Shown piece after piece: positions 1-59,341 of a stretch of 59,341 nucleotides of DNA. Made by a program: the position numbers and the translations under genes. Each line of letters begins with the position of its first letter. The stretch's first letter is position 1. The notes under the pieces were generated by a model. It ran no database searches. It was given only the letters and a program-made list of their open reading frames with translations, and was not told the DNA's origin. This stretch comes from a virus (Duplodnaviria > Caudoviricetes), in the IMG/VR virus record IMGVR_UViG_3300038334_000010, positions 1-59,341 of that record; one strand, written 5' to 3'.

Positions 1-97
1 TTGGCCGGATCGTTGGCGTAGGTGCAGGCGATCCAGCGCCCAACGGCGTCGTGTTCGCCGCGCCAGCTTTTCGGATTGGCCGGATCGTTGGCGTAGG
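1..97. repeat. 97-nt terminal direct repeat (assembly overlap), identical to 59245..59341
   Basis: Base-by-base identity of both ends; the same 97-mer also occurs at 53766..53862. Confidence 0.9.
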
Positions 98-374
98 TGC
101 TGGCGATCACGTTGCCATCGGCGTCGTGTTCGTCGCGCCAGCTATTCGGATGCGCCGGATCGTTGGCGTAGGTGCGGGCGATCACTCGCCCATCGGCGTC
201 GTGTTCGTAGCGCCAGCTTTCCGGATTCGCCGGATCGTTGGCGTAGGTGCGGGCGATCCAGCGCCCAACGGCGTCGTGTTCGTAGCGGTAGCTATTCGGA
301 TGCGCCGGATCGTTGGCGTAGGTGCGGGCGATCCAGCGCCCAACGGCGTCGTGTTCGTAGCGGTAGTAGCTCAT
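1..374 (-). CDS. YD/RHS-like 25-aa tandem-repeat protein, array A, 5' part (continues across the contig junction to 58845; 257 aa and 10 units if joined on the 97-nt overlap)
   Basis: GAGGAG RBS then ATG at 374: [34 protein letters not shown]...; 75-bp period; in frame with ORF 58845..59129 after removing the terminal overlap. Confidence 0.8.
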   Translation of the reverse strand, partial: MSYYRYEHDAVGRWIARTYANDPAHPNSYRYEHDAVGRWIARTYANDPANPESWRYEHDADGRVIARTYANDPAHPNSWRDEHDADGNVIASTYANDPANPKSWRGEHDAVGRWIACTYANDPA

Positions 375-388
375 GTCAATCTCCTCGT

Positions 389-414
389 TAGCGTGTGCAG
401 GCCGGGCGCTACGC
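389..414 (-). repeat. 26-bp boundary element GCGTAGCGCCCGGCCTGCACACRCTA, copy 1 of 5
   Basis: Near-identical copies at 40794..40819(+), 40928..40953(+), 53571..53596(-), 58825..58850(-). Confidence 0.9.
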
Positions 415-632: not shown

Positions 633-920
633 ATGCAACTACTGGACTACATCAAAAACGCTGAGAACAAGTCAGCGCTTGCATTATCTGTGGGTGTGTC
701 CAAGGGATACTTGTGGCAGATCGCTACCGGCTGGGTCAACGGCAAGGGCTACAAGCAAAAAGCAGCACCTACACTGGCTGTGGCCATCGAGCGTAGCACT
801 GGCGGTATCGTATCATGCGAGGAAACAAGACCCGACCTTGAATGGGTACGTGGGACTACTACAGGCGATCCAATTGCGTATGAAGTCAAGATCGACAGCG
901 GTTCAATATACCCTAGATAA
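633..920 (+). CDS. Cro/YdaS-like HTH regulator
   Basis: KSALALSVGVSKGYLWQIATG...LAVAIERSTGGIVSCEETRPDL pattern. Confidence 0.8.
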   Translation: MQLLDYIKNAENKSALALSVGVSKGYLWQIATGWVNGKGYKQKAAPTLAVAIERSTGGIVSCEETRPDLEWVRGTTTGDPIAYEVKIDSGSIYPR

Positions 921-32404: not shown

Positions 32405-34018
32405 ATGCAAGCGAAGCCACCGATCTTTATAGACGAGCAGGGCAGGGCCACGGTTACTAACCCAGCGCGCACGCAGCTTGTACCAACAAGCTCCGCACAG
32501 CGACTTTCGTCAAGTCGTGGGCTTGTCCCAATTGGTAGCGCAACGCCGGTTGAACAATTCACGAAAGAGCAGATCCGTGCGGCGCGCGCTGCCACGGATG
32601 CGCGCTTGGCCCCGCTTTCCGGCGCATCAACGCAGGGCGCAGCGCCATCAGCATCGGCGAGTCCGGCTTCAGCAACGCCAAACCAGCAGCCGGTCAAGCC
32701 ATCGGTGCTCAATAGGCTTTCCAGCGCAATTAGGGATAATCCGAGGAAAGCTATCGGTGGCACTGTGCTGTCTACTGCCTTGGAAGCCCCGACTGTGCTT
32801 GATGCGTTTCAGCGTGGAGGCGCGGTAGAAGGGCTTAAGCAAGTTGGTCGTTCAGGATTGAAAGTTGCCGGTGGTATTGGGGGCGGTGCATTGGGATTGC
32901 TTGCCCCACCAGGCGCGCAGATTGCTACTATCCCAGCATTGTCTGTGGCTGGCAACGCTGCTGGTAAAGCGGTCGGAAACTTTGTGTTTGGGGAAGGTCT
33001 TGTCGATGGCAGAACGGAATCTGGCCCGTCGAAGTTGGCGCAAGCAGTGCGAACAGCTGCTGCTGCCGACTTTTCTGGCAGAGCCCGCCCAGGAGGTACT
33101 ACGACAAGTATTCTTCCAGAGTTTCTTGGCGGTAATAATCAGCCAAGGGCCATTCCTGCGCAAAGCATTACATCGCCCATTGGTACTACAGGGCCGACAA
33201 GCCGTGGGAGTGCGCGCCGGACAGCAGGTGGGAGCGCGCAGGCTGGGCAATCGCCTTCGGAAGTGCTTAGCACATTCACAGGTTCGGACAGGAGAACACA
33301 GGCCATCACGCGGTCAAGGGCAAACGATCTGGCAGCGCAGTTGCCTACGGTATCAATTACTGCTGGCGGCGATACCGCCGCGCGCCAGCAAAATGGCAGA
33401 GCCGCACAGTTTCAGGCGCGCAGACCATCTGCGTCAGGGCTGAGTTCCGTAAGCCGCCAGATTGACGCGACGATTGCTGGACTTGGCGAGTTGAATATGC
33501 GCTCCAAGCGCGCGCTAGTTGGGCAGCTTTTAGATGCCAAGGCACGGCTTGCGTCAGGGCAGTTCAACACCGAGGCAGGCATTGGAACCAACGATGCATC
33601 CATTGCGCAGCGTCAGGCTGGCGATCTTTTGTCTGCGGATACGTCGTCAACCAATGCTCGGCTAGGCCGTGCTCAAACGGTAGTTGGCGCGGATGGGGCA
33701 TTGCGCACGCTTGATCCGGCAAACCCTGCATCGCTGACGCCAGTTACTGATGCTGCTGGAAATCCGATATTTACTCCGCAACGGAGTTCGGCCGATCCGC
33801 AGGCAAAGTTCCAGAATGATGCTTTGCTGAAGCTGATCCAAGGGCAGGCCAACCAGATTGGCGGAGACGGCATAAATGAGCAGCAGCTTCAGGAACAGCT
33901 TGACGCGATCAAGCGGCTCAGTTCTGGCGGCGGTGCGGGATTGCAGCAAATAGGGACGGACTCAAAAACGGGGAACCCCGTATTCCGTGATGCCAATGGT
34001 AATTTGGTGACTAAGTAA
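32405..34018 (+). CDS. Putative DNA ejection protein
   Basis: AGGAG RBS; Ala/Gly/Gln-rich with Gly-zipper hydrophobic segment. Confidence 0.65.
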   Translation: MQAKPPIFIDEQGRATVTNPARTQLVPTSSAQRLSSSRGLVPIGSATPVEQFTKEQIRAARAATDARLAPLSGASTQGAAPSASASPASATPNQQPVKPSVLNRLSSAIRDNPRKAIGGTVLSTALEAPTVLDAFQRGGAVEGLKQVGRSGLKVAGGIGGGALGLLAPPGAQIATIPALSVAGNAAGKAVGNFVFGEGLVDGRTESGPSKLAQAVRTAAAADFSGRARPGGTTTSILPEFLGGNNQPRAIPAQSITSPIGTTGPTSRGSARRTAGGSAQAGQSPSEVLSTFTGSDRRTQAITRSRANDLAAQLPTVSITAGGDTAARQQNGRAAQFQARRPSASGLSSVSRQIDATIAGLGELNMRSKRALVGQLLDAKARLASGQFNTEAGIGTNDASIAQRQAGDLLSADTSSTNARLGRAQTVVGADGALRTLDPANPASLTPVTDAAGNPIFTPQRSSADPQAKFQNDALLKLIQGQANQIGGDGINEQQLQEQLDAIKRLSSGGGAGLQQIGTDSKTGNPVFRDANGNLVTK

Positions 34019-37000
34019 TGCTCAAACCATTTACGGGGAAGCTTACCCTTAACCCTGATGGCAGGCCGATTCCTGTTGCCGAGCAGTTGGCTGCGCCAGT
34101 GGCTGTGCAACAGCAGCCGGTTGAGCCGCAAGGCCGAACGCTTGGCAGAACACTCGCCGATCTTGGACTGGGCGCTGCGTCTGGTACGGTCGGACTTGTT
34201 GGCGATGTGGCGCAAGCCGCGAATACGGTAAGCGGTGGTGCGATTGACCGGCTGATAGCGCCGGCCGAGCGAGCCGTTACCGGGCGGCCAGCGACAGGCA
34301 TTGCCCAATTGCAGCAATCTGCGCGGCAGTTTGTCAATTCAGGGTTGAGTGCAGATATTACCGCGCGCCAGCAGAACCTTCAGCAGCAGACTGGGTTTGT
34401 TGCACCAGCAGCGACACTGTTATCCGATCCAGGACTAGCTGGGCAATTCTTGGCTGAGCAGGTTCCTATCCTGCTAGCGCTTGGCAAAACGTCGCGTAGC
34501 GCCGCACGTAGCGGGCGTTCTGCCTCGTTGGAGAACACTGCAAAGATCACTGCGCAGCGCCCAGTTCGTGCCGGAGCGGCTGAACGACTGGCAGAACGTG
34601 CTGCTGAAAAGTCATCGCAGCAATCTGTTATTGCCGCGAGTTCTGTGCTTGGCGGCGGGTCAGCGGCCAATCAGGCGAGTCAGGAAGTCGAAGCGCTGCC
34701 GATTGAGACATTGCGTGCTAATCCAGAGTTCGCGGCGCGCGCTGCAATTGTTGGCGAGGACAAGGCGAGAGCCGAATTGGCGCAAGGTGCTGCACTCAGG
34801 GCGCTGGCCATTGCAGCACCATCTTCAGCAGTAGCAAGTAGGATTGCTGCGCCGTTTGAGTCAAAACTGTTCCGTGGGCAGTTGGGTGGCGGCGGGTTGA
34901 AGGAACGGCTGCGGACCATTGGAACCGGCGTGGCGCGAGAGGTGACCGAGGAAACCTTGCAGGAAGGCTCGGAGCAGTTGGCTCAGAACATTGGCGTACA
35001 GTCCGCCGACCCAACGGTTGGCACATTCCGTGGCGTTCCAGAAGCGGCTAGCATCGGCGGTGCGCTTGGCGCGCTATTTGGTGCTGGTGGCGGGGCATTT
35101 GGCGGGGCTGTAAGGTCGGATGCAGTAGCGCCGCAAGACCCGGCGAGTGACCCTGCTGCCCCAGACCCTGCCATTGATCCGGCTGTTCAGGCGCCAGATG
35201 CAGGACTGACTGCCCAGCCGGTAGACATTGCCCAGCAACCTTCCGATAATGCAACACAGCAGGACGACAGCGCGGCGCAGCAGGTTGTGCAGGAACCGGC
35301 CAAAGCACCGCTGGAAGCCGCTGCGGATATTGCTACAGGTCTTGCCGAAGTTGACGCATCGTCAGGCGCTGGCCCGGCTGCAAGGGCGTTTGTTGATGCG
35401 CAAAACAAAGAAGTCGCACGTGGCGGAGATTTGGTCGAGAAGGCCGCTCAGGCGCAGATCAAAGCTGCTAGCGATGAAGCATTGAAAGCCGCCAAAAAGG
35501 CGGATACCCAATCTGCGCAGGTCGCAGCACTTGGTGAAAAAGCAGGCGCCCCTCCCACGCCGGCAAAAGCCACGAGCGCGCCTGCGCAGACCTCTAATCC
35601 GGCGACGGATGCGGCTGTATCGGCGCAGGATCAGTCTGCGCAACAGGCAGCACCAGCGCTTCCTGTTGGGGAAGTTCGCAAAGTAGGCAAGTCCAGCATC
35701 ACATTGACGCCGATTGCGAGTGATCCAATTGTTGCTACCGAGCTTACATCAAAGGGATCGTTGGCAATTCTGCGAGCAGCCACTTCACCGACTGGCGCAG
35801 AGGTAAATGCAATCGCGCAAAACAACGTGAACGCGCCGACAGGTGCAATAGGTGGCAGCGGCGTCAGGATCAATTTGCGAGGCCAATCGGTTTCAGCGAC
35901 GCAGATTCCAACAACAACGGATGTCCGGCAGTTCGGCGTGAACTTCGTCGGGCCGCAGTCCATTGAGTCCGTGGTAGTGGCCAGTGGCGTTCGCTTGGTG
36001 CCAGCAGCGCGCAAGATTCTGACGGACTCGTTCACCGCGACGGTTAACCAGAACGGATCGACTGTCTACACGCCAAAAGCTGCGCCACCGGCTAGTGCGC
36101 CTGCTTCGGTGGGCGCTGAAGTTGCGCAGGCTAATACGGCGCCACAGCCGGTAGTTCAGGCGTCGCCATCGCAGCCATCTGTAGTTCAAGCAGCGCCAGC
36201 AGCGGCGCAGCCAGTGAAGAATACGCCAGCGGCGCGTAAGGCAGCGAGGATAGCAGCTGAGCAGAATGTGACGATTGCATCAAACAACGATCAAACAAAT
36301 GTCGCCAGTGCAAACAATGTGTTGTCCGGCAGGTCGGCGAGTTCAGCCAATCCCAATCAAGAAACGGTCGCTATCCAGAATACGGCTAGCAAGTCGGCTG
36401 TCCGTCGCGTTGCGGCATCACAGGGGAAAACGCAGGCTTCCGTTGCGCCGAATACTACTGCGACGGCAAATACTGCTGTGCAGCAGAAAGCCGCAGCGGC
36501 GGCAACTTCCGCAGATACAGCAACTGTGCCTACGGAAAAACGGAAAGCACGTACTGCGGCTACGCCAGTTGTCAAGGATTCCTTGACAACTGCGAAAAAG
36601 GCAAAGGCGGCTCCGAAGGCCAAAGCTAAGAAGAAAACCATTGCCAAAACTCCGGGAGCCAAGACCGCCACAGTAGAGGCGACCGCCAAAATACCGGCTA
36701 CCGCCAAGGCCGCCAAGTTGCCGAAGGCCAAGACCGTAGCCGAAAAGGTTGCAGATAGCGTCACACCGCCACAAGCGCCTACGCGGACTCAGGGAGCGTC
36801 AATCGCTGATCCAGGCGTTAAGGTGGCGCCTTCCAACGCGGCCGCCTTGAACGAGCATATCGCGCGGATTGTTTCGCAGTGGCGTGGTGACGTGCCCAGC
36901 GTGAAGGTTATTCAGTCTGTAACGGATTTGCCGCTCAGAGCGCAGAGGGGAAACGAGTTCAACAGGGCCGAAGGCTGGTATGACGGAGCTACGATCTATC

Positions 37001-40000
37001 TGGTTGCCGACAACATTCCTACCGCGCTGCGTGCCGAGCAGGTTCTGGCCCACGAAGCCTTTGGCCACTTTGGCGTAGATGGCGTGTTCGGCCGAGCCGA
37101 ATGGGACGGGATCATTGCTCAGGTTGGCAAGATTCGTTCTGGCGAAGCCGTGGCTTCAGGACCGCTACAATCCGCCTTGCAAGCGACCCGCAGACGCTAC
37201 CCGAACGCGAGTCGTGAAACCTTCGCCCGAGAGTTCATCGCTGTCATGGCCGAACGTAACCTGCGAGCCAGCCCATTTGGACGTGTGCTTGCGGCCGTTC
37301 GTGCATTCCTGAGATTCCTTGGCTTCAAGCCCGATTCGTGGGCTGAAGCAGATTTGCGATCTGTCGTTTCCGAAGGAATGCGTAGGGTCCAGAATGCCCA
37401 GAAGGTCCGTGTTGCCACAGTGAACGCAGCAACCGAAGGCGCGTTTTCCGTGATGGACCCGAACGTGGCGTTCAACACGCTGGCTGATGCGCTCGCCCCA
37501 GAACAAGGAATTGTCCGGCGTGTGCTGAACAAGGCATCCGATCTGGCGGCTGTTGGGCTCAAGGCGCTCACGCTTCGCCAGTTGGTTGAGATTGCGTCAG
37601 ACCGCCTGTTGCCAAACGCAAAGCGCTACCAGCGCGCCGTGGATGACATGAAGGTGAGGCGAATCTCATTGCAGAACAAACCTGCCGAATTGGTCAAACG
37701 GTTCGCCGACATGCAATCAGACGCCTATCGGAAGATGCGACAGCAGGGCAAGCAGTTGTCCGACGCTGATGTTATGGCGAACGTAGCCCATGACGCAACG
37801 ATTGCTGGCGCCGATCCAGCTGAAGCGTTTGTAGCTGGCGTGGTGTCGTTGGAGCACGACGGGGCAAAGATCGATGTGACGCCGGAGGCTGTTGGCAAGG
37901 CTGTGTCAGACCTAAAGGCGTTGCTGGAAGACAAGGCTATAGAGGCAGAACGCATCCCGATCATCAAAAGCGACATCGCCAGACTCAAGGCAGCACTTGC
38001 GGCTGAGCCAAAGCGAATTGAAGACCATGCCGCGCTGGTTCCACGGTTCAATGCGATGCCCAAAGCATGGCAGCAGCTTTACAGGGACGTTCGCGATCAG
38101 TATGCGGCGAGAGCCGACGAAACAATGCAGTCCATACTGGAGCGTATTGACCGAATGGACCTGAGCGATAGGGTCAAAAAAGATACCGCCATCCGAGCGC
38201 GGGCACGATTCGAGTCTGCCCGCATTACCGCGCCATACTTCCCGCTGGCTCGGTTCGGCGAGTATTGGGCCAGTCTGACTTCGCCAGAAGGCGAGGCTCA
38301 TTTCATCATGGCCGAGACGAAGACGGAGCGAGACGCTGAGCTTTCCAAGCTGGCCGCCAAGGGGTTCACATTCAACAAGGCGGGTGTCCATTTGGACTCG
38401 ACATTCGCGGCTGACCAGACGAGCGGCACGTTCGTTGCTGACGTAGTGGCGATGCTGGACAAGAACGGGGTGGACTCCAAGGTTCAGGACGAGGTGTACC
38501 AGATGTTCCTGCGCCACTTGCCAGACCTTTCGGCAAGAAAGTCGTTCATCCATCGCAAGAAGATCGCCGGCTACAGTTCCGACATGCTCAGGGCGTTCGC
38601 TGGGCAGATGAACCATTCGTCGTTTCAGTTGGCGCGTCTTGAGTTCAAGGATCGGCTTGATAGTGCGCTGACTGCGGTAAAGGCAGATGCAAAGGCCGCT
38701 AACGCGCTAGGTGCTGATGATGGCGCGCTGGCAGATAGACTGGTGAACGAGCTGAACCGACGCAATGACTGGGTTCTACACCCGACGCACAACAAGTATG
38801 TGCAGGCCCTGCAAAGCGCAAACTTCGTGTTCTATCTTGGACTTGCTCCTGCGTCAGCCATCGTCAATCTGACGCAGAATGCTTTGGTTACATATCCAGC
38901 TTTGGTTGCTCGGTATGGAGTCGTCCAGGCAACACGGCATATGATGACGGCGTTTTGGTCGTCTGTATCCACAGGCGGAAACATTGACACAACGCAGTTG
39001 AACGCTGACGAACAAGCGGCTATGCAGCAATTAGTGCAGCTTGGCGCACGCGATCAAACACTTGGGCATGACCTTGCCGGAATCGGCGACAATGATACAC
39101 GAGACTTTAACCCGCTCGGAAGCAAGGTGATGCACCTTCTTTCGTTCCTGTTCCACAGGGCTGAGGTAATCAACCGCGAATCGACGGGACTGGCTACATA
39201 CCGGTTAGCGCGTGAGGCTGGCAAGGGACACGATGCAGCAGTGGTAGAGGCAGCAGACACGATTTGGAGTACCCATTTCGACTTCTCAAACGAGAATCGT
39301 GCCGCATTCATGCAGTCCGACGCCGGCAAAGTCATCTTTGCGTTCAAGCAGTACAGCCAAGGCATGACGTACTTCCTTGGGCGGGCAGCATTTCAGTCGA
39401 TAAATGGCGCTACGCCTGAAATAAAGCGTGAGGCGCAACGCAGGATAACTGGCACGCTGTTCATGACCGGCGTGTTCTCAGGCGTGCTTGGGATGCCGAC
39501 TATGAGCGTCATTCTCGGCACCATGAACGCCATGGGGGCCGCATTTGGTGACGATGATGATCCGTTCGATGCAGAAACCGAGGTGAGGAACTTCTTTGCG
39601 GACATGCTTGGATTCGGCGGCAAGCTGATCGGCGGGGCCGAAGGAGAGAAGATTGGTCGGTCGGCCGAGAGCGTGCTGTCTCGCGGCCCCATTGAGGCGC
39701 TCACTGGCATAGGCATTGCCAACCGAACCAGCCTTTCCGAGCTATGGTTCCGCGACCCCAACCGCGAACTGGAAGGACGTGCGCTTGGCGACCACATCAT
39801 GGAGCAGGTTGCTGGGCCTATCGGTGCGATTGCCTTAAACCTGTTTCAGTCCGCAAGCACGATCCACGAAGGACTAGATACTGGCAACAACGGAATGATG
39901 CTCCGTGGGCTTGAGTCAGCAATGCCGACGGCCGTCAAGTCGGCCATGAAGGCTCTCCGGTTTGGAGTAGATGGGGCCAATACGCTGCGTGGTGATCCGC

Positions 40001-40368
40001 TGATCGACGACGTGAACTGGCGTGAGGTCCTTTTCCAGTTCACTGGATTCTCACCAGCCCGCATCAACGCCATCTACGACGTTAACAACGCCAAGAAGAA
40101 CGTTGAGGAATCGCTAATCAAGCGCAAGTCAACGCTGATAGACGCCTACGCACTGACACTCAAGTTCAAGGACAGGGATGGCCAGCGCAATGTTGTCGAG
40201 AAGATCAAGAAGTTCAACGCCACCAATCCGACCATCGCAATCACTATGTCTACGATCCGCCGTGCTATGACTTCGAGGCAGAACTTCTCCGAGCGGGCTT
40301 CGGGAGGTGTGGTTGTAAACCCTCGTCTTCAAGGGCGTATTGACGATAAAGTGCGTTTTGGGCAGTGA
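34018..40368 (+). CDS. Giant ejection/polyvalent protein with PLxRFG domain
   Basis: EETLQEGSEQ ejection-type motif, LAHEAFGH zincin-like motif, YFPLARFGEY, FAFKQY. Confidence 0.85.
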   Translation: MLKPFTGKLTLNPDGRPIPVAEQLAAPVAVQQQPVEPQGRTLGRTLADLGLGAASGTVGLVGDVAQAANTVSGGAIDRLIAPAERAVTGRPATGIAQLQQSARQFVNSGLSADITARQQNLQQQTGFVAPAATLLSDPGLAGQFLAEQVPILLALGKTSRSAARSGRSASLENTAKITAQRPVRAGAAERLAERAAEKSSQQSVIAASSVLGGGSAANQASQEVEALPIETLRANPEFAARAAIVGEDKARAELAQGAALRALAIAAPSSAVASRIAAPFESKLFRGQLGGGGLKERLRTIGTGVAREVTEETLQEGSEQLAQNIGVQSADPTVGTFRGVPEAASIGGALGALFGAGGGAFGGAVRSDAVAPQDPASDPAAPDPAIDPAVQAPDAGLTAQPVDIAQQPSDNATQQDDSAAQQVVQEPAKAPLEAAADIATGLAEVDASSGAGPAARAFVDAQNKEVARGGDLVEKAAQAQIKAASDEALKAAKKADTQSAQVAALGEKAGAPPTPAKATSAPAQTSNPATDAAVSAQDQSAQQAAPALPVGEVRKVGKSSITLTPIASDPIVATELTSKGSLAILRAATSPTGAEVNAIAQNNVNAPTGAIGGSGVRINLRGQSVSATQIPTTTDVRQFGVNFVGPQSIESVVVASGVRLVPAARKILTDSFTATVNQNGSTVYTPKAAPPASAPASVGAEVAQANTAPQPVVQASPSQPSVVQAAPAAAQPVKNTPAARKAARIAAEQNVTIASNNDQTNVASANNVLSGRSASSANPNQETVAIQNTASKSAVRRVAASQGKTQASVAPNTTATANTAVQQKAAAAATSADTATVPTEKRKARTAATPVVKDSLTTAKKAKAAPKAKAKKKTIAKTPGAKTATVEATAKIPATAKAAKLPKAKTVAEKVADSVTPPQAPTRTQGASIADPGVKVAPSNAAALNEHIARIVSQWRGDVPSVKVIQSVTDLPLRAQRGNEFNRAEGWYDGATIYLVADNIPTALRAEQVLAHEAFGHFGVDGVFGRAEWDGIIAQVGKIRSGEAVASGPLQSALQATRRRYPNASRETFAREFIAVMAERNLRASPFGRVLAAVRAFLRFLGFKPDSWAEADLRSVVSEGMRRVQNAQKVRVATVNAATEGAFSVMDPNVAFNTLADALAPEQGIVRRVLNKASDLAAVGLKALTLRQLVEIASDRLLPNAKRYQRAVDDMKVRRISLQNKPAELVKRFADMQSDAYRKMRQQGKQLSDADVMANVAHDATIAGADPAEAFVAGVVSLEHDGAKIDVTPEAVGKAVSDLKALLEDKAIEAERIPIIKSDIARLKAALAAEPKRIEDHAALVPRFNAMPKAWQQLYRDVRDQYAARADETMQSILERIDRMDLSDRVKKDTAIRARARFESARITAPYFPLARFGEYWASLTSPEGEAHFIMAETKTERDAELSKLAAKGFTFNKAGVHLDSTFAADQTSGTFVADVVAMLDKNGVDSKVQDEVYQMFLRHLPDLSARKSFIHRKKIAGYSSDMLRAFAGQMNHSSFQLARLEFKDRLDSALTAVKADAKAANALGADDGALADRLVNELNRRNDWVLHPTHNKYVQALQSANFVFYLGLAPASAIVNLTQNALVTYPALVARYGVVQATRHMMTAFWSSVSTGGNIDTTQLNADEQAAMQQLVQLGARDQTLGHDLAGIGDNDTRDFNPLGSKVMHLLSFLFHRAEVINRESTGLATYRLAREAGKGHDAAVVEAADTIWSTHFDFSNENRAAFMQSDAGKVIFAFKQYSQGMTYFLGRAAFQSINGATPEIKREAQRRITGTLFMTGVFSGVLGMPTMSVILGTMNAMGAAFGDDDDPFDAETEVRNFFADMLGFGGKLIGGAEGEKIGRSAESVLSRGPIEALTGIGIANRTSLSELWFRDPNRELEGRALGDHIMEQVAGPIGAIALNLFQSASTIHEGLDTGNNGMMLRGLESAMPTAVKSAMKALRFGVDGANTLRGDPLIDDVNWREVLFQFTGFSPARINAIYDVNNAKKNVEESLIKRKSTLIDAYALTLKFKDRDGQRNVVEKIKKFNATNPTIAITMSTIRRAMTSRQNFSERASGGVVVNPRLQGRIDDKVRFGQ

Positions 40369-40651
40369 ACTGGCGGGGACACTCTGTCAGTAGTTCATCA
40401 CGCACACGCAACCCTAGCGACTTAGCAGCAGCGACAACCTGCCAAGCCCGCCACCACGACATATGTCCATCGGCGCGCCACTTGTGGTACATCCATGCTG
40501 GAACGTGAGGATTGTTGAGCGCCCGCATGAACGCATGTATCCCGCCAGCCTGCGCCTCGCACCGCGACAGGCAAGCGCGCATGGCTTCACGCTCACGCTC
40601 GCCCCAAGCGGGTGATGGCCCCGTGTCTATCCAACGTCGTCTTGTTCTCAT
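40265..40651 (-). CDS. Second Cro/YdaS-like HTH protein, probably leaderless
   Basis: AGGIHAFMRAL..MYHKWRADG..RAWQVVAAA; ATG 6 nt after the -10 box; same position relative to the duplicated promoter as 633..920; 3' end overlaps the giant gene. Confidence 0.55.
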   Translation of the reverse strand: MRTRRRWIDTGPSPAWGEREREAMRACLSRCEAQAGGIHAFMRALNNPHVPAWMYHKWRADGHMSWWRAWQVVAAAKSLGLRVRDELLTECPRQFTAQNALYRQYALEDEGLQPHLPKPARRSSASKS

Positions 40652-40657
40652 GTGCAA

Positions 40658-40726
40658 ATAGTAGCACATACCTATTGACAAGGCAATAGATACGCGTGTA
40701 GGCTGTGTCTCGTGCGCAGCGGCGTG
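40658..40726. promoter_or_regulatory. Inverted second copy of the bidirectional promoter at ~533..601
   Basis: + strand TTGACA(40675)-N18-TAGGCT(40699); - strand TTGCCT-N17-TACTAT; ~65 bp with 3 mismatches to the left copy. Confidence 0.75.
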
Positions 40727-40834
40727 GAAAGCAGACACGCAGCATCAACGTGTACCTGCGGAGTGTTGAACAAGAAGCTACGTAGGATAGCCGGCGTAGC
40801 GCCCGGCATGCACACACTAAACGAGGAGATTGAC

Positions 40835-40933
40835 ATGACAGACTACCGCTACGAACACGACGCAGATGGCACCCTGATCGCCTGCACCTTCGCCAACGAT
40901 CCGGCCAATCCGGAAAGCTGGCGCTACGCGTAG
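40835..40933 (+). CDS. Single-unit YD-like repeat peptide (32 aa)
   Basis: GAGGAGATTGACATG start identical to the arrays; MTDYRYEHDADGTLIACTFANDPANPESWRYA. Confidence 0.75.
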   Translation: MTDYRYEHDADGTLIACTFANDPANPESWRYA

Positions 40934-40963
40934 CGCCAGGCCTGCACACACTGATCAGTCGGA

Positions 40964-43165
40964 GTGGTGAACGAAATGAAGCGATGCAACTACCAGGGAT
41001 GCGGTAGCTACGCATTCAACTTGTCGCGTGATGGGATTGACCAGCGCGATTTGTGCGATGTCCATTACTGGCAGAGCAAGGCCAAAACGGCGAGGCGCGA
41101 TGCGCTGGAAGATGCCGCCAACAAGTTCGACGGAACTACTACATACAACCCGCTGGCGGCGGACGGATACTCCAACGCCTCCGATATTGCTAGCGAGCTT
41201 CGGTACATGGCTACCGAAGAACTGTTGTGGGAATAAGACATGAAAGACACATTCCCTGAAACATTGATGATACGAGATACCGAAACCTACGATGGCAATG
41301 GCATAGGAGGCTTTGGGCAAAGAATATTTACCACTGCCGGATTCGGATATGAAAAGGTTAAGTATGTGCGCGCAGATATTTTGAACGTGCCATACGCTAA
41401 TCCATGTCCGCATTGCAATAAACAGCTAAAACTGCCGTATAACACATTGCAGAATACTCAAAGTTATCTAAAGCCCTTGCGCTCAATCACACGGTGCTGC
41501 CAGCAGTTGGTAACAGTACATCCGTGCGTTCACTTGGTTGTAAGTGTATATAAGGGCGGCGAGGTGGAAGATGATTGGGGTCGCCAAGTGACTAAGTCAA
41601 TAGCAAATGGTGAATTATGAGTGACTTTGACCACTGGTTTGCTGAGTACAACAATGAAAACCACGGGCGTAACGATGCTGCCGAAGCCGCATGGGATCAC
41701 CAGCAGCGCACGATTGATGCATTGCGGGCATTCGCACAAGAGGTCATGGAGTTCTCTCCCCTCGGGTACACCGATGGTCTAGATTTGCAAGCAATCGCCT
41801 GCAAGCACGGATTGATGGCTACCGATAGACGTGTGATGCCGTGCGCTGAAGGCTCTGCGTGTACATGCAGAGCAATTTACTCGAAGCGTGCGTTAGGCCG
41901 TGAAATAAATTGCACCCACAAAACACCACTGTTGATAGGAGGCTGACATGCAACTGACCCAGCGTGAGATTCGCCACCAACGACCGTTGCCGATAGGCAA
42001 GTGCGGACACTCGCCGAGGCACTACCTGGACTCGCGTGGCGCTGGATCGCACCTGCTGGAGTGCGCCATGTGTGGCGTGTCTAGCGGCAAGATGACGACA
42101 TTCAACGAGGCGCTTGAGCGCTGGACTGGCGAAGCGGTGCGGGCTCTCAGATATGTGGGGAGCGCGAAATGAGCGTGGACAGAAAAAACTCCAACCTGGT
42201 TGAGATTGCATCGCAGATGCTTCACGGCAGAGGAATGCCAGACTTTGATGATCTTCCGCTACCGTCCAGCGCGTCAAGAAGACTGCGAAGAGAGCTGAGT
42301 AAGCAAGAGCGAAGAGCGCACGAGCAGTGCCGGTTGTGGGCGATTGAGTTGTACGAAATCGCAAAATCGATGAAAGGTATTGACTGGAAAGGAAATACGC
42401 GATGAAGTTTGACTATAGATTCACTGGCAAGAGTATCGGCCTTCCGTTCGACGTTGGCGTAATTGACTATTTATTGTCTGACTCAATCGCTGAACAGTAC
42501 GTGGACTTTGAAATCATCGGCCCCGATGGGATCAGCATGCCTTCACACCTTGTCGAGGACTATTTCGACGCGTCCGAGAAAAGCAAGATGCGGGATACAA
42601 TACTCAAGGCGATAGAAGAGGAGCGTGCTCTAAGTTTCCGCAAAGGATACGATTGACGAATGTCCCCCAGCTTGCGGGGTGCGCGCTCTAGTCCAGCGCG
42701 CGAATCTCCACGCCGCGCCGGCGACGTGTAAGCACCGGCACTAATTACCACCACCACAAAGGAACAGTCGTGGCTGAGATGAGAGATATACCGGACATCG
42801 TTAACACAGAGTTCAGCCAGTTTTTCGAGTTTTCGACGGAGCAACGCACTGCTGTGACGGTAGTATCAGCAAAACTGTTCGCTGCCCGTGTGGCCACTCT
42901 GGCAGTTGAATCAGCGATCGCTGCGCAGTCGATCCCATGCGTTGATAAGCAATGCGTAGGCGGATGCAATGCTGCCAAGTCTGATAATGAGATTCGTCGA
43001 ATGGAGTCGCTGCTGAGCAGGGCATTGCCATACGTCGAAGCATCTGCTGAAGCCAGCCATTTTACCGATGGCTTTAACAGGAAGCCATCGAATAGCATCG
43101 ACCGGCTATCCGACGAAATCAAAACAGCGATTACAGAAGCGGTGAACGCAATTGAAAAGGAATGA
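40964..43165 (+). other. Run of small hypothetical early genes (40964..41236, 41240..41620, 41617..41946, 41948..42172, 42169..42405, 42402..42656, 42770..43165)
   Basis: Tightly coupled ORFs with ATGA overlaps or RBS; several have CxxC pairs. Confidence 0.6.
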
Positions 43166-43322: not shown

Positions 43323-43423
43323 ACTCGCATAGCTCAATGGTAGAGCAGGAGGCTTATACCCTCCCCCGGAAGGCGCCGCCAGATTAGCGGACGATCATGG
43401 TTCGATTCCATGTGCGAGTACCA
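43323..43423 (+). tRNA. tRNA with TAT anticodon (Ile-UAU), 31-nt variable region, encoded CCA
   Basis: ACTCGCA/TGCGAGT acceptor, GCTC/GAGC D stem, GGAGG-CTTATAC-CCTCC, CATGG-TTCGATT-CCATG, ACCA end. Confidence 0.88.
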
Positions 43424-52314: not shown

Positions 52315-52704
52315 TCAGTAGATGGCTACGCCACGGGTGTATTCGCTCCTAATGTCCGAATCGCCAAGGACGTCCAGCGGCACGGCGTACAGTGCGCAGC
52401 CTCGCGGGTCGCCCTGGACGTACAGGATCACGTCCGGGTGTTGGGACTGAATAGCTGCGATGCGCCGCCGCGCGCCGGCTTCGCGGTCGGCCACTCGACT
52501 AAGCCGCTCACCTGTGCGCGGTGAGTGCCAGTACGGCGCCTCGGTATTCTCGTCGCGCTGTATCACGCCGTTGCATTCGTGCTCATTCCATCGTTGCAGC
52601 GTCATCGACGCACGGCGCAGGGTTTCGGCCTCGGCGGCGCTGAATCCGAGTCTGCGCAGGGCGTTCTCTTGCGCGTTGAGTCTCATTGCTTCGTTGCGGT
52701 TCAT
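52315..52704 (-). CDS. Hypothetical protein (QGDPRG motif)
   Basis: GGAG RBS directly after the 57-nt element; MNRNEAMRL...YVQGDPRGCALY. Confidence 0.7.
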   Translation of the reverse strand: MNRNEAMRLNAQENALRRLGFSAAEAETLRRASMTLQRWNEHECNGVIQRDENTEAPYWHSPRTGERLSRVADREAGARRRIAAIQSQHPDVILYVQGDPRGCALYAVPLDVLGDSDIRSEYTRGVAIY

Positions 52705-52720
52705 GTTTGTAACTCCATTC

Positions 52721-52777
52721 TGGCACCATCGCCACCGCTGCACCCTCGCGGGAGGATGCAGGGATAGGTCGGTGCTA
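52721..52777 (-). repeat. 57-nt intergenic hairpin element, copy 1 of 3
   Basis: TAGCACCGACCTATCC-CTGCATCCTC-CCGC-GAGGGTGCAG-CGGTGGCGATGGTGCCA; other copies at 53477..53533 and 54261..54317. Confidence 0.88.
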
Positions 52778-52793
52778 CGCGGTAGCGCCCTGA

Positions 52794-53468
52794 TTAGGCT
52801 TCGAGTGCCCATGCTGGAATAGCGGCGGGAACCGTTACTTCACTCTCGTGCCACGGCATCGTGACACCGACGAAGCCATAGACGCCATTGAGCAAGACAA
52901 GTGTTCCACGTGTGCCCTGCTGCCTTGCAACGGGCGCGGCTTTCGTACCCAGCAGCTTGCCGGCCTTAACAAAGACGGCTAAGTCCTCAAAATTGAGACT
53001 CGCGGGAGCAATGGCGTCGTCGTCAATCGTCGGAAGCACCGCTTGCCACTGCGGGAATCTGGCGTTAAGCGTCACGCCCGCAACGCTTGTCTCGCCACAC
53101 GTCAGGCTCACCGAGCGCACTGCGCACAGAATATCGCCCACGCGCACCGTAATATCCGCTTCATTGCGGGCCTTGAGTGACGCAATCAGCGCAGCCGGAA
53201 TGATCGCAGTGACGCTCGGCCCTTGAATGTCACCATCGGTGACGCGGAAAGCGCCGAGAACCCTACCGTTAGTTGCGATCAGACGCACGGTGTTCGCGGT
53301 GCTGTTCACTTCCAGGCATACGCCATTCAGTCCCGTACGGATGTCATTCTTAGCCGCGAACAGTGCGGCAGCCTTGAGTGTGCCCATCGGCACCGTGACG
53401 CTTGTATGTGTCAGCTCGGCTTCCGTCGCGGCTTCGGCGGTTGCGGTTGCGGTTGTCATTTTATTCAC
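52794..53468 (-). CDS. DNA polymerase III beta-clamp-like protein (partial fold)
   Basis: AAKNDIRTGLNGVCLE..LIATNGRVL..RFPQWQAVLP echo DnaN motifs. Confidence 0.65.
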   Translation of the reverse strand: MNKMTTATATAEAATEAELTHTSVTVPMGTLKAAALFAAKNDIRTGLNGVCLEVNSTANTVRLIATNGRVLGAFRVTDGDIQGPSVTAIIPAALIASLKARNEADITVRVGDILCAVRSVSLTCGETSVAGVTLNARFPQWQAVLPTIDDDAIAPASLNFEDLAVFVKAGKLLGTKAAPVARQQGTRGTLVLLNGVYGFVGVTMPWHESEVTVPAAIPAWALEA

Positions 53469-53476
53469 TCCTTGTT

Positions 53477-53533
53477 TGGCACTATCGCCACCGCTGCCGA
53501 CTCGCTGGAATCGGCAGGAGTAGCTCGGTGTTA
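53477..53533 (-). repeat. 57-nt intergenic hairpin element, copy 2 (compensatory stem changes)
   Basis: Stem CTGCCGATTC-CAGC-GAGTCGGCAG. Confidence 0.85.
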
Positions 53534-53590
53534 GGCGATCATGAAGGTTTCCCCTTTGTATAGTCAGTCGTAGTGTGTGCAGGCCGGGCG

Positions 53591-54244
53591 CTACGCTTCG
53601 CGCCAGCTATCCGGATTCGCCGGATCGTTGGCGTAGGTGCAGGCGATCAGGCGGCCATCTGCGTCGTGTTCGTCGCGCCAGCTTTCCGGATTCGCCGGAT
53701 CGTTGGCGTAGGTGCGGGCGATCAGGCGGCCATCTGCGTCGCGTTCGCCGCGCCAGCTTTTCGGATTGGCCGGATCGTTGGCGTAGGTGCAGGCGATCCA
53801 GCGCCCAACGGCGTCGTGTTCGCCGCGCCAGCTTTTCGGATTGGCCGGATCGTTGGCGTAGGTGCAGGCGATCCAGCGCCCAACGGCGTCGTGTTCGTAG
53901 CGCCAGCTATCCGGATTCGCCGGATCGTTGGCGTAGGTGCGGGCGATCAGGCGGCCAACGGCGTCGTGTTCGTCGCGCCAGCTATCCGGATTCGCCGGAT
54001 CGTTGGCGTAGGTGCAGGCGATCCAGCGCCCAACGGCGTCGTGTTCGCCGCGCCAGCTATTCGGATGCGCCGGATCGTTGGCGTAGGTGCGGGCGATCAC
54101 TCGCCCATCGGCGTCGTGTTCGTCGCGCCAGCTATCCGGATTCGCCGGATCGTTGGCGTAGGTGCGGGCGATCAGGTTGCCATCTGCGTCGTGTTCGTCG
54201 CGGTAGTCGCTCATGTCAATCTCCTCTTCGCGTTTCGTGGTCAT
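53591..54244 (-). CDS. YD/RHS-like 25-aa tandem-repeat protein, array B (8 units)
   Basis: 8 x 75 bp; two in-frame ATGs with RBS (54244, 54214); ends SWREA* like array A. Confidence 0.85.
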   Translation of the reverse strand: MTTKREEEIDMSDYRDEHDADGNLIARTYANDPANPDSWRDEHDADGRVIARTYANDPAHPNSWRGEHDAVGRWIACTYANDPANPDSWRDEHDAVGRLIARTYANDPANPDSWRYEHDAVGRWIACTYANDPANPKSWRGEHDAVGRWIACTYANDPANPKSWRGERDADGRLIARTYANDPANPESWRDEHDADGRLIACTYANDPANPDSWREA

Positions 54245-54260
54245 GTCTGTTTCTCCTGTC

Positions 54261-54317
54261 TGGCACTATCGCCACCGCTGCACCCTCACCGGAGGATGCA
54301 GGGATAGGTCGGTGCTA
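54261..54317 (-). repeat. 57-nt intergenic hairpin element, copy 3
   Basis: Starts on the TAG of 54315..54536 and ends at the next RBS. Confidence 0.88.
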
Positions 54318-54536
54318 CTTCAACGCTTCGGCGAGTTCGTCAGCGCTCATGGCTGCGATGGAAGCGTCCGGCACCAGACCAAGCCGCGCCATTTCGTCTC
54401 GTATCTCGCGCTCATACTGGCGCACCCAAACGGCGCGCATCGCCCGCTCTTGAGCGCTGGTAGCAGCGGCAAAGCGGGCGCGTTCGCGACTTAGGCCAGC
54501 CTCAAGCGCAGTTAGATGATCTGTGGTTGAGGTCAT
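54315..54536 (-). CDS. Hypothetical protein
   Basis: HLTALEAGLSRERARF..VWVRQYEREI..MSADELAEAL. Confidence 0.7.
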   Translation of the reverse strand: MTSTTDHLTALEAGLSRERARFAAATSAQERAMRAVWVRQYEREIRDEMARLGLVPDASIAAMSADELAEALK

Positions 54537-58249: not shown

Positions 58250-58669
58250 TCAAAAAGGAATATCGTCGTCAATTTCGTCGTAATCTCTGGTAGGCGTTTG
58301 GTTGTCGTTGGGCGGTTTGGCTGCTACCTTGCCGTCGCTGCCACCCAGCATCTGAAGCTCGCTGGCGATGATGCCGGTGCTGTAGCGCTCAACCCCATCC
58401 TTGCCCGTGTACTTGTCCGTGCGCAAGCTGCCCTCGATATATACCTGGCGTCCTTTCTTGAGGTATTCGCCGGCGATTTCAGCTAGTTTTCCGAAGAATG
58501 TTACTCGGTGCCATTCAGTGCGCTCAGCCTTCTCGCCCTTCTTGTCCTTCCACGTTTCCTTGGTAGCAACACTGATTGTGGCAATCGCTGAACCGTTCTG
58601 AGCGTACTTCACCTCAGGGTCGTTTCCAAGATTTCCAATAATGGTGACGCGATTTATTCCTCTGCTCAC
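58250..58669 (-). CDS. ssb: Single-stranded DNA-binding protein
   Basis: GTG start with GAGGAG RBS; [29 protein letters not shown]. Confidence 0.95.
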
Positions 58670-58808: not shown

Positions 58809-58844
58809 GTTGACTCCCATTCGTTAGTATGTGCAGGCCGGGCG

Positions 58845-59341
58845 CTACGCTTCGCGCCAGCTATTCGGATGCGCCGGATCGTTGGCGTAGGTGCAGGCGA
58901 TCACGTTGCCATCGACGTCGTGTTCGTAGCGCCAGCTTTCCGGATTGGCCGGATCGTTGGCGTAGGTGCGGGCGATCACGTTGCCATCGGCGTCGTGTTC
59001 GCCGCGCCAGCTTTCCGGATTGGCCGGATCGTTGGCGTAGGTGCGGGCGATCACGTTGCCATCGGCGTCGTGTTCGCCGCGCCAGCTTTTCGGATTGGCC
59101 GGATCGTTGGCGAAGGTGCGGGCGATCACTCGCCCAACGGCGTCGTGTTCGTAGCGGTAGCTATTCGGATGCGCCGGATCGTTGGCGTAGGTGCAGGCGA
59201 TCCAGCGCCCAACGGCGTCGTGTTCGTAGCGCCAGCTTTCCGGATTGGCCGGATCGTTGGCGTAGGTGCAGGCGATCCAGCGCCCAACGGCGTCGTGTTC
59301 GCCGCGCCAGCTTTTCGGATTGGCCGGATCGTTGGCGTAGG
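58845..59341 (-). CDS. YD/RHS-like repeat protein, array A, 3' part
   Basis: 75-bp units; open frame to the contig end; ends SWREA*. Confidence 0.8.
   Translation of the reverse strand, partial: YANDPANPKSWRGEHDAVGRWIACTYANDPANPESWRYEHDAVGRWIACTYANDPAHPNSYRYEHDAVGRVIARTFANDPANPKSWRGEHDADGNVIARTYANDPANPESWRGEHDADGNVIARTYANDPANPESWRYEHDVDGNVIACTYANDPAHPNSWREA

Follow-up and report, generated by a model that had tools for sequence, protein, structure and literature searches.

The window analysed here, the IMG/VR record IMGVR_UViG_3300038334_000010 at its full length of 59,341 bp, comes from an uncultivated groundwater phage and is classed in IMG/VR as having direct terminal repeats and as 100% complete. 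Four of its open reading frames (ORFs) are made of one 75-bp unit: array A, which runs across the junction of the record ends, array B, and two one-unit ORFs. The question that this locus raises is whether such ORFs are genes at all and, if they are, what kind of protein they encode and what this protein could do for the phage. We regard the four ORFs as genuine genes. Their family is small, restricted to phages and, judged by sequence, part of the RHS/YD repeat class. The family is clean, recurrent and rare; the repeat class is known, and its free-standing use in proteins of 1-10 units is new. The original prediction had spoken of a new system; that was an overstatement for a protein family whose repeat class is already known. 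The ESM atlas labels small viral clusters as "RHS repeat" proteins (scores 0.84-0.85), an automatic label that serves as a lead only.

The known YD-repeat proteins of phages are large toxins or tail parts (the APSE toxin cassette, tail proteins). The family described here has in common with them that the YD repeats are encoded by a phage; however, the large proteins are secreted or belong to the virion, whereas here they are repeat-only and their genes are found in early operons. The RHS/YD hairpin, until now seen as the material of toxin cocoon walls, can also stand by itself in modules of 1-10 units, as these proteins show. Our literature searches brought up nothing on phage proteins that are small and consist of YD repeats only, although catalogue tables in supplements could list such proteins; in the main text of PMC11724313 the terms RHS, YD repeat, repeat protein and pentapeptide have 0 occurrences.

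The repeat unit, its reading frame and its class

Tandem Repeats Finder (TRF) delimited 75-bp arrays at 4-362 (4.8 copies, 89% matches), 53598-54202 (8.1 copies, 91% matches) and 58854-59341 (6.5 copies, 90% matches), all of them with 0% indels. The 20 units extracted from the four ORFs all match the consensus given in the original prediction, and the four ORFs read the unit in the same frame. The claim that a 75-bp in-frame unit forms four genes was therefore borne out, with 10 units in array A if the record ends are collapsed, 8 units in array B, and one in each of the two remaining ORFs. The repeat proteins of the window start with the first unit and end in ...SWREA right after the last one. 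For array B (53599-54202), TRF also reported a 225-bp super-period (2.7 copies, 92% matches), a higher-order repeat of three units, as would arise if a few unit types (AVGRW, ADGNV, ADGR[VL]) were set out in blocks.

The borders of the repeat genes are shared as well (Table 1). The 15-mer GAGGAGATTGACATG, which comprises a ribosome-binding site (RBS), a spacer and the start codon, is present in exactly three copies, at 372-386(-), 40823-40837(+) and 54212-54226(-); when 2 mismatches were allowed, 5 matches were found against 0.11 expected, and 0 of 100 shuffles reached 5. The 18-nt linker TAGCGCCCGGCCTGCACA occurs with at most 1 mismatch also at 40797-40814(+), 40931-40948(+), 53576-53593(-) and 58830-58847(-), which makes 5 matches against 0.01 expected. 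This linker carries the stop codon for three of the four repeat genes and lies also upstream of two of them; the cassettes are thus bounded by the same linker on both sides.

With regard to the repeat class, Pfam RHS_repeat (PF05593) matches array B with 46.8 bits and the parts of array A with 44.4 and 45.5 bits (cut-off 22), and TIGR01643 reaches 17.7 bits against a cut-off of 15.8, which confirms the YD/RHS-like nature first read from the letters. Taken alone, the one-unit ORFs remain below the RHS_repeat cut-off (14.6 bits for one, no match for the other). Of the profile families named for comparison in the original prediction, RHS_repeat thus recognised the repeat above its cut-off, whereas none of the 5 products matched a MORN family of Pfam, even at E <= 10. 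The lack of an RHS core, of a toxin and of a signal peptide, which had also been claimed, agrees with the scans of Pfam and NCBIfam, where the products matched no RHS-core or toxin family. In Pfam no other domain, such as an N-terminal plug or trafficking domain, was found in them, and the N-termini, read by eye and without a predictor, present no signal peptide. Matches to PADLOC PDC-M05B (19 bits, no significant stretch) were disregarded.

The YD frame is not the only open one in the arrays: other frames are open too, and all six largely so, which is to be expected of a repeat of triplet length. In comparisons with two metagenomic contigs that carry relatives, G001 and L009 (see below), the cross-phage alignment score was highest in the YD frame (548 against 327 for the next best in G001; 581 against 492 in L009), and in both contigs this frame is free of stops. 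The consensus of the family is R-x-E-[YHRF]-D-A-x-G-R-x-[IV]-A-x-T-Y-[AG]-x-D-P-x-x-P-x-S-W. Among the 20 units of the window the amino acid is invariant at 14 of the 25 codons; codons 8 and 20 present synonymous variation only and codon 6 nearly so (GCC 14, GCA 5, one GTC), and the changes cluster at eight hypervariable positions (2, 7, 9, 10, 13, 21, 23 and 25). Such a distribution would suit a rigid scaffold in which a few positions are free to vary, or else a small set of unit types that gene conversion has shuffled. Furthermore, the metagenomic proteins P0001, P0002, P0006 and P0053 combine these units, in frame, with C-terminal regions that are unrelated, an arrangement that is sensible only for a translated module.

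In an alternative reading, the function resides in the DNA or RNA repeat itself (as iterons, a site of recombination or packaging, or a structured RNA), and the open frames are a by-product of its triplet length. The six largely open frames would agree with it, as would the location of the arrays in a region of replication and recombination genes and the fact that assemblies break at them. We consider it highly improbable, since divergent relatives keep the 25-aa period and the motif with only 48-60 of the 75 consensus nucleotides identical, the Pfam match, the RBS, the start and the stop fit one frame at every locus, the in-frame fusions to other domains occur, and Rfam has no match at the arrays.

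Two further observations concern the unit. A diversity-generating retroelement target was rejected: PF00078 has no match in the record while control genomes do match, and the substitutions are not adenine-specific. In P0002, two YD-type units are followed by a C-terminal part with weak MazG-like matches (PHROG E 4e-3 to 8e-3; in Pfam 18-21 bits, below the cut-offs of 22-27), a fusion that points to YD units being used as a putative N-terminal add-on.

Relatives, genomic contexts and record ends

A phmmer search against 1.84 billion representatives gave 179 matches at E <= 1e-3, 17 of them at E <= 1e-10, which are a mix of small repeat-only proteins (38-230 aa) and giant Rhs-type proteins. All the small relatives, which cover 38-270 aa overall, are metagenome proteins. 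In the small proteins the spacing of the motif is exactly 25 aa in 101 of 116 spacings, a tally in which columns 18-25 are biased by the anchor and the counts are inflated by 15 near-identical members of the P0001 cluster. Two-unit proteins recur (P0012, P0020, P0029 and P0031), and a protein identical to the product of the 38-aa one-unit ORF has been called in a public collection (P0046). In PHROGs, only the unannotated family phrog_38549 was matched (E 6e-9). A tblastn search of array B in 50,697 phage records retrieved only a Nitratiruptor phage tail fibre with 24% identity, and in scans of viral contigs, for which array B, P0001 and P0003 served as single queries, no relative could be confirmed.

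By means of a motif scan of IMG/VR one further phage was found, G001, which is temperate and has 39,013 bp (classed as "linear" and 100% complete). Its gene order is a Cro-like helix-turn-helix (HTH) gene, an array gene, a 3-unit gene, and the genes of a pentapeptide-repeat protein, an Erf-like annealing protein, an exonuclease and an integrase. At E <= 1e-5 the window and G001 have no ORFs in common apart from these repeat genes, and there is no terminase match between them. In addition, the 3.5-kb metagenome contig L009 carries three repeat genes of 2, 5, and 8 or more units, and L010 a single open-ended array. Two or more repeat genes of different length are present in all three multi-gene contexts (the window, G001 and L009), so that the multi-locus, variable-length arrangement first proposed for the window recurs in independent contigs. 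The location at the head of an early operon, beside a Cro-like regulator, is seen in two unrelated phages, the window and G001.

The pentapeptide-repeat gene of G001 (L006 602-1273; Pfam E 5e-27) is located directly after the arrays, and the C-terminal ~60 aa of its product (..IKIGCQxH....WR..) resemble the C-termini of P0006 and P0053 (BLASTP E 2e-4). This common module suggests that pentapeptide and YD repeats share a partner domain and may be interchangeable modules. The C-terminal domain of P0053 was modelled with a predicted local distance difference test (pLDDT) score of 73; it has no match in PDB at E <= 1e-3, and a word-based search found only the domain itself. The ~60-aa module is also associated with P0157.

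Array A is interrupted by the ends of the record. The first 97 nt of the record are identical to the last 97 nt, and when this overlap was collapsed by a script, a 59,244-bp circle with an in-frame array A of 257 aa and 10 units was obtained; these 10 units correspond to the simplest closure, not to a proven path. The first 100 nt and the last 101 nt of the record are also found exactly in array B (53766-53865 and 53762-53862, respectively). Therefore, the "direct terminal repeat" of IMG/VR is a repeat artefact: the assembler halted at what is the longest exact repeat. G001 likewise has both of its ends within an array. The phage is present in 4 public runs, all from one groundwater-metagenome study, whose contigs stop 14-60 nt into each array; inside the arrays only pieces of 54-86 nt are found, and it should be noted that array stretches without contig cover are no evidence of absence. 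The unique flanks run into the arrays with 0 mismatches at 53605, 54147 and 58859 in three of the four runs, and in run X4 at 54147 only. Since the contigs break inside the arrays and the flanks are unique, the loci are anchored and real, and the unit numbers rest on the assembly.

Could a single repeat locus have been mis-assembled into these arrays or into their present placement? In favour of it, the record begins and ends within the repeat, the 97-nt "terminal repeat" recurs in array B, and no public contig spans an array. We give this explanation next to no credence, because the unique flanks enter the arrays without mismatch at the three checked boundaries in most of the runs, the 5' half of array A is without a stop and its 3' half without a start while both halves join in frame, and the same architecture is present in G001 and L009, which are independent contigs. 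As a practical lesson, arrays like these break short-read phage assemblies and can yield false "direct terminal repeats".

The predicted ribbon and what it may bind

AlphaFold2 modelled array B from a 27-row alignment with a pLDDT of 92.3 and a predicted template modelling (pTM) score of 0.78, in the form of 16 strands with one beta-hairpin per unit. This 8-unit model bears out the repeat-only beta-sheet products of the original prediction. When the model was compared with PDB by Foldseek, the lowest E-values belonged to Rhs shells (8e-9), Tc BC subunits and teneurins (among them 7q97_A with 8e-9, 8uxt and 4igl_B), with template modelling (TM) scores of 0.2-0.3, and the best TM scores (TMq 0.50-0.55) to the engineered OspA single-layer sheets 2fkj_A, 2oy8 and 6kk9_D. 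In BFVD the best TM scores (TMq 0.61-0.67) were those of MORN-repeat proteins, including one labelled YwqK-family antitoxin and a "MORN variant" of an uncultured caudovirus. Taken together, the model and the structure matches argue for an open, twisted, single-layer ribbon and not for a cocoon. The ribbon is predicted to be ~8-10 nm long for 8-10 units stacked edge to edge. One face should expose positions 25, 2, 4, 10, 12 and 14, and the other one positions 1, 3, 11, 13 and 15; the turn would hold positions 7 and 9, and the long loop positions 21 and 23, as deduced from the DSSP string and not from coordinates. The prediction of a two-copy complex of array B scored 0.00 (mark 0.42; without controls), which is evidence neither way.

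The family shares the YD-x-x-G-R hairpin repeat with the shells of Rhs proteins, Tc BC and teneurins, and giant Rhs-type proteins are among the phmmer matches. However, the unit here has 25 aa with a conserved D-P-x-x-P-x-S-W loop, and there is no N-terminal plug or trafficking domain (PAAR, VgrG-binding), no RHS core protease motif and no C-terminal toxin. With only 1-10 units (32-257 aa, ~20 strands in the longest), a closed cocoon is impossible; without shell, plug, RHS core or toxin, these are not Rhs toxins. The engineered OspA proteins have a similar flat, core-less antiparallel sheet of repeated hairpins, but they are man-made extensions capped by globular domains, with 8-13% identity and no sequence relation. 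The likeness to MORN proteins is one of fold and not of membership: in these there are also stand-alone runs of ~23-25-aa hairpins that form an elongated, twisted, single-layer sheet, but their motifs are GxG / YEGEW, as compared with YD..GR / DPxxPxSW here. YwqK is built of MORN-variant repeats. No toxin partner is located beside the repeat genes.

According to an excerpt of PMC7725318, a run of nine MORN repeats gives a twisted, elongated sheet that measures ~80 A and bears a groove. The excerpt also describes MORN repeats as modules for protein-protein interaction, reports that MORN proteins dimerise and oligomerise, and adds that a similar sheet, that of the CPAP G-box, forms supramolecular assemblies. 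The pair ywqJ-ywqK is listed, in an excerpt of PMC8321402, among the putative polymorphic toxin-antitoxin pairs of B. subtilis; in 300,000 characters of PMC3482391, YwqK and MORN have 0 occurrences.

With respect to function, our tentative proposal is that the repeat proteins are cytoplasmic early accessory proteins which bind and block a host factor through the surface of the sheet. Made early in the cytoplasm, the ribbons would work in a stoichiometric manner: a host protein, most probably a defence effector or some other factor that handles DNA, would be captured on their binding surface and blocked. The eight hypervariable positions would set what is bound, and the numbers of units and paralogues would shift easily by homologous recombination between the 75-bp units and between the 18-nt and 15-nt linkers; the window encodes its own exonuclease VIII, RecT and SSB. 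By analogy, the binding mode could be that of MORN ribbons, which are interaction modules, and of the YwqK-family antitoxin that neutralises its toxin. The genes are accessory; they open early operons next to a Cro-like switch and are followed by the SSB and recombination genes. This location at the operon head in unrelated phages, the paralogy with its differences in unit number, and the few hypervariable positions fit an early blocker of a host factor. The data show the repeat class, the frame, the predicted fold, the distribution of the family and the position of the genes; the time of expression, the binding, its target and any adaptive value of the copy number are what we infer. The abundant, early expression and the roles as decoy, ligand sponge or shield put forward in the original prediction are likewise suppositions.

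If early inhibition of host proteins were true, these proteins would be a new structural class of phage counter-defence or host-takeover proteins, formed by an open YD-type beta-sheet whose length is set by the unit number, and they would provide a small natural scaffold for binder engineering. A more specific version is a long shot. In it, each of the near-identical hairpins would expose its specificity residues (2, 7, 9, 10 and 13) on one face and the rim, and the array would read a repeating or extended target unit by unit. The phage recombinases, by shuffling the unit types and altering their number, would retune the target and the tightness of binding, so that the ribbon would be the beta-sheet equivalent of TALE, PUF or VLR proteins and a fast-evolving counter-defence "accordion".

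Several points weigh against an early blocker of this kind. Only three genomic contexts are at hand, two of them on short or broken contigs, and the spot beside the immunity switch also houses many unrelated early genes. Neither blastn of the array B region nor tblastn of the G001 array gave a match in the 50,697 phage records, and a single pattern gave none in a collection of genome contigs from 185,579 species; the family is therefore rare. The pooled ratio of non-synonymous to synonymous polymorphism (pN/pS) among units is 0.88, and the variable columns are distributed 7/9/8 by codon position, a split that is uninformative for such a repeat, so that there is no plain signature of purifying selection. 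A few unit types shuffled by gene conversion could also concentrate the change at few sites. Moreover, AlphaFold2 can be overconfident about an idealised repeat that resembles solved Rhs structures, and the MORN likeness of the predicted fold is structural only.

Other functional explanations have to be weighed with the same data. The arrangement could be neutral, with a functional accessory protein in which a recombination-prone minisatellite of a dispensable gene was expanded, split and copied by the phage recombinases without any tuning, the one-unit ORFs being decaying remnants. The units are ~90% identical in DNA, and exact repeats shared by different arrays reach 101 nt; the stop-bearing 18-nt linker is found both after and before cassettes, as would result from duplications that include the flanks; and the encoded RecT, exonuclease VIII and SSB, together with the pN/pS value given above, are in line with this. 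We nevertheless regard it as unlikely, since the one-unit ORFs keep RBS, start and stop and sit tightly between their neighbours, two-unit proteins recur in the family, and genes of several lengths per genome are found in each of the three contexts. A polymerising function, in which exposed edges would join ribbons or close a cage to give a filament or shield and the one-unit peptides would cap the edges, seems very unlikely to us. The free edges of an open single-layer sheet would allow it, OspA-based peptide self-assembly mimics are among the best TM matches, and both the oligomerisation of MORN proteins and the assemblies of the CPAP G-box are described in the excerpt of PMC7725318. The family, however, has no sequence mark of an assembly interface, and it occurs also as short N-terminal modules on other domains, which is a better fit to a binding module.

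A different kind of capture is known from DNA mimics, such as pentapeptide-repeat proteins, Ocr and ArdA. Like the proteins of the window, T7 Ocr, ArdA and the pentapeptide mimics are small, acidic, non-enzymatic proteins whose genes come first in an early operon. An acidic rod-like ribbon could then imitate duplex DNA as a decoy that sequesters DNA-binding enzymes of the host or its defences (type I restriction, BREX, gyrase-like), and the unit number would set the length of DNA mimicked. The pI and net charge of array A are 5.2 and -16, those of array B 4.7 and -16 to -18; the genes have a promoter-proximal early position; and in G001 the arrays are followed by the pentapeptide-repeat protein that shares its C-terminal module with P0053 and P0006. 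Still, we find such a decoy improbable. The charge is modest (-6 to -8 per 100 aa), far below the acidity of the mimics, and it is not conserved, with a pI from 4.5 to 9.4 in 29 small homologues and above 8 in 6 of them. In addition, the fold differs from that of the mimics, the predicted shape is a flat sheet and not a cylinder, and the phage already has a DarB-like anti-restriction protein.

Gene neighbourhood in the window

The coordinates of the repeat genes and of the features around them are collected in Table 1.

Table 1. Repeat genes of the window, their linker and the neighbouring features.
Feature	Position	Strand	Details
Array A, 5' part	1..374	-	Start ATG 372-374, followed by 4.9 units that run off the record start
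Array A, 3' part	58845..59341	-	Units entering from the record end; stop TAG 58845-58847; 59245-59341 duplicates 1-97
Array B	53591..54244	-	8 units; 217 aa from ATG 54244, or 207 aa from ATG 54214 behind GAGGAG
One-unit ORF, 38 aa	58692..58808	-	RBS GGGAG; 36 nt past the array A stop, 22 nt ahead of the SSB start
One-unit ORF, 32 aa	40835..40933	+	Behind GAGGAGATTGACATG
18-nt linker TAGCGCCCGGCCTGCACA	394..411	-	Upstream of array A
Upstream segment	528..597	-	TTGACA (584->579), candidate -10 TAGGCT (560->555), inverted repeat TTATTG-N6-CAATAG (570-587)
Upstream segment, inverted second copy	40662..40731	+	93% identical, 70 nt; ahead of the 40835 ORF
Cro/YdaS-like HTH regulator gene	633..920	+	Divergent from array A; PF15943 E 6e-8, phrog_35 E 1e-10
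SSB gene	58250..58669	-	Directly past the one-unit ORF; GTG 58669 behind GAGGAG (by eye); PF00436 E 2e-37

As regards the upstream segment, a duplicated TTGACA main promoter had been proposed ahead of array A and of the 32-aa ORF. The duplication of the segment, in inverted orientation, is real, whereas a scan with the sigma-70 consensus gave 0 promoter-like sites in 1-1000 and 40300-41100; read by eye, the element TTGACA-18 nt-TAGGCT is promoter-like. The inverted repeat of the second copy (40670-40690) is perfect, CTATTG/CAATAG, and overlaps the TTGACA hexamer. An inverted repeat over TTGACA resembles an operator at which the neighbouring Cro/YdaS-like regulator could act. At 40662-40731, the segment heads an operon with exonuclease VIII, RecT and SbcC-like genes, and array B is found among small early genes, adjoining a clamp-like gene.

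Three other observations were made in the window. An intergenic module of 78 nt is present in three copies on the minus strand (52701-52778, 53457-53534 and 54241-54318), each preceding one of three consecutive early genes, array B included. It consists of a conserved RNA hairpin (19 predicted pairs, 3 of them with compensatory changes) followed by an RBS and ATG, and the hairpin may have a processing or stabilising role. At 43323-43420(+), the tRNA model of Rfam reaches 60.2 bits over 98 nt (cut-off 29) and ARAGORN reports no tRNA in the window; this may be an unusual or interrupted tRNA. Finally, the structural block ends with a gene (34018-40368, +) for a 2116-aa protein, whose C-terminal part has a DarB-like anti-restriction/helicase match (phrog_10089, E 1e-145) and whose N-terminus has a weak match to a virion RNA polymerase family.

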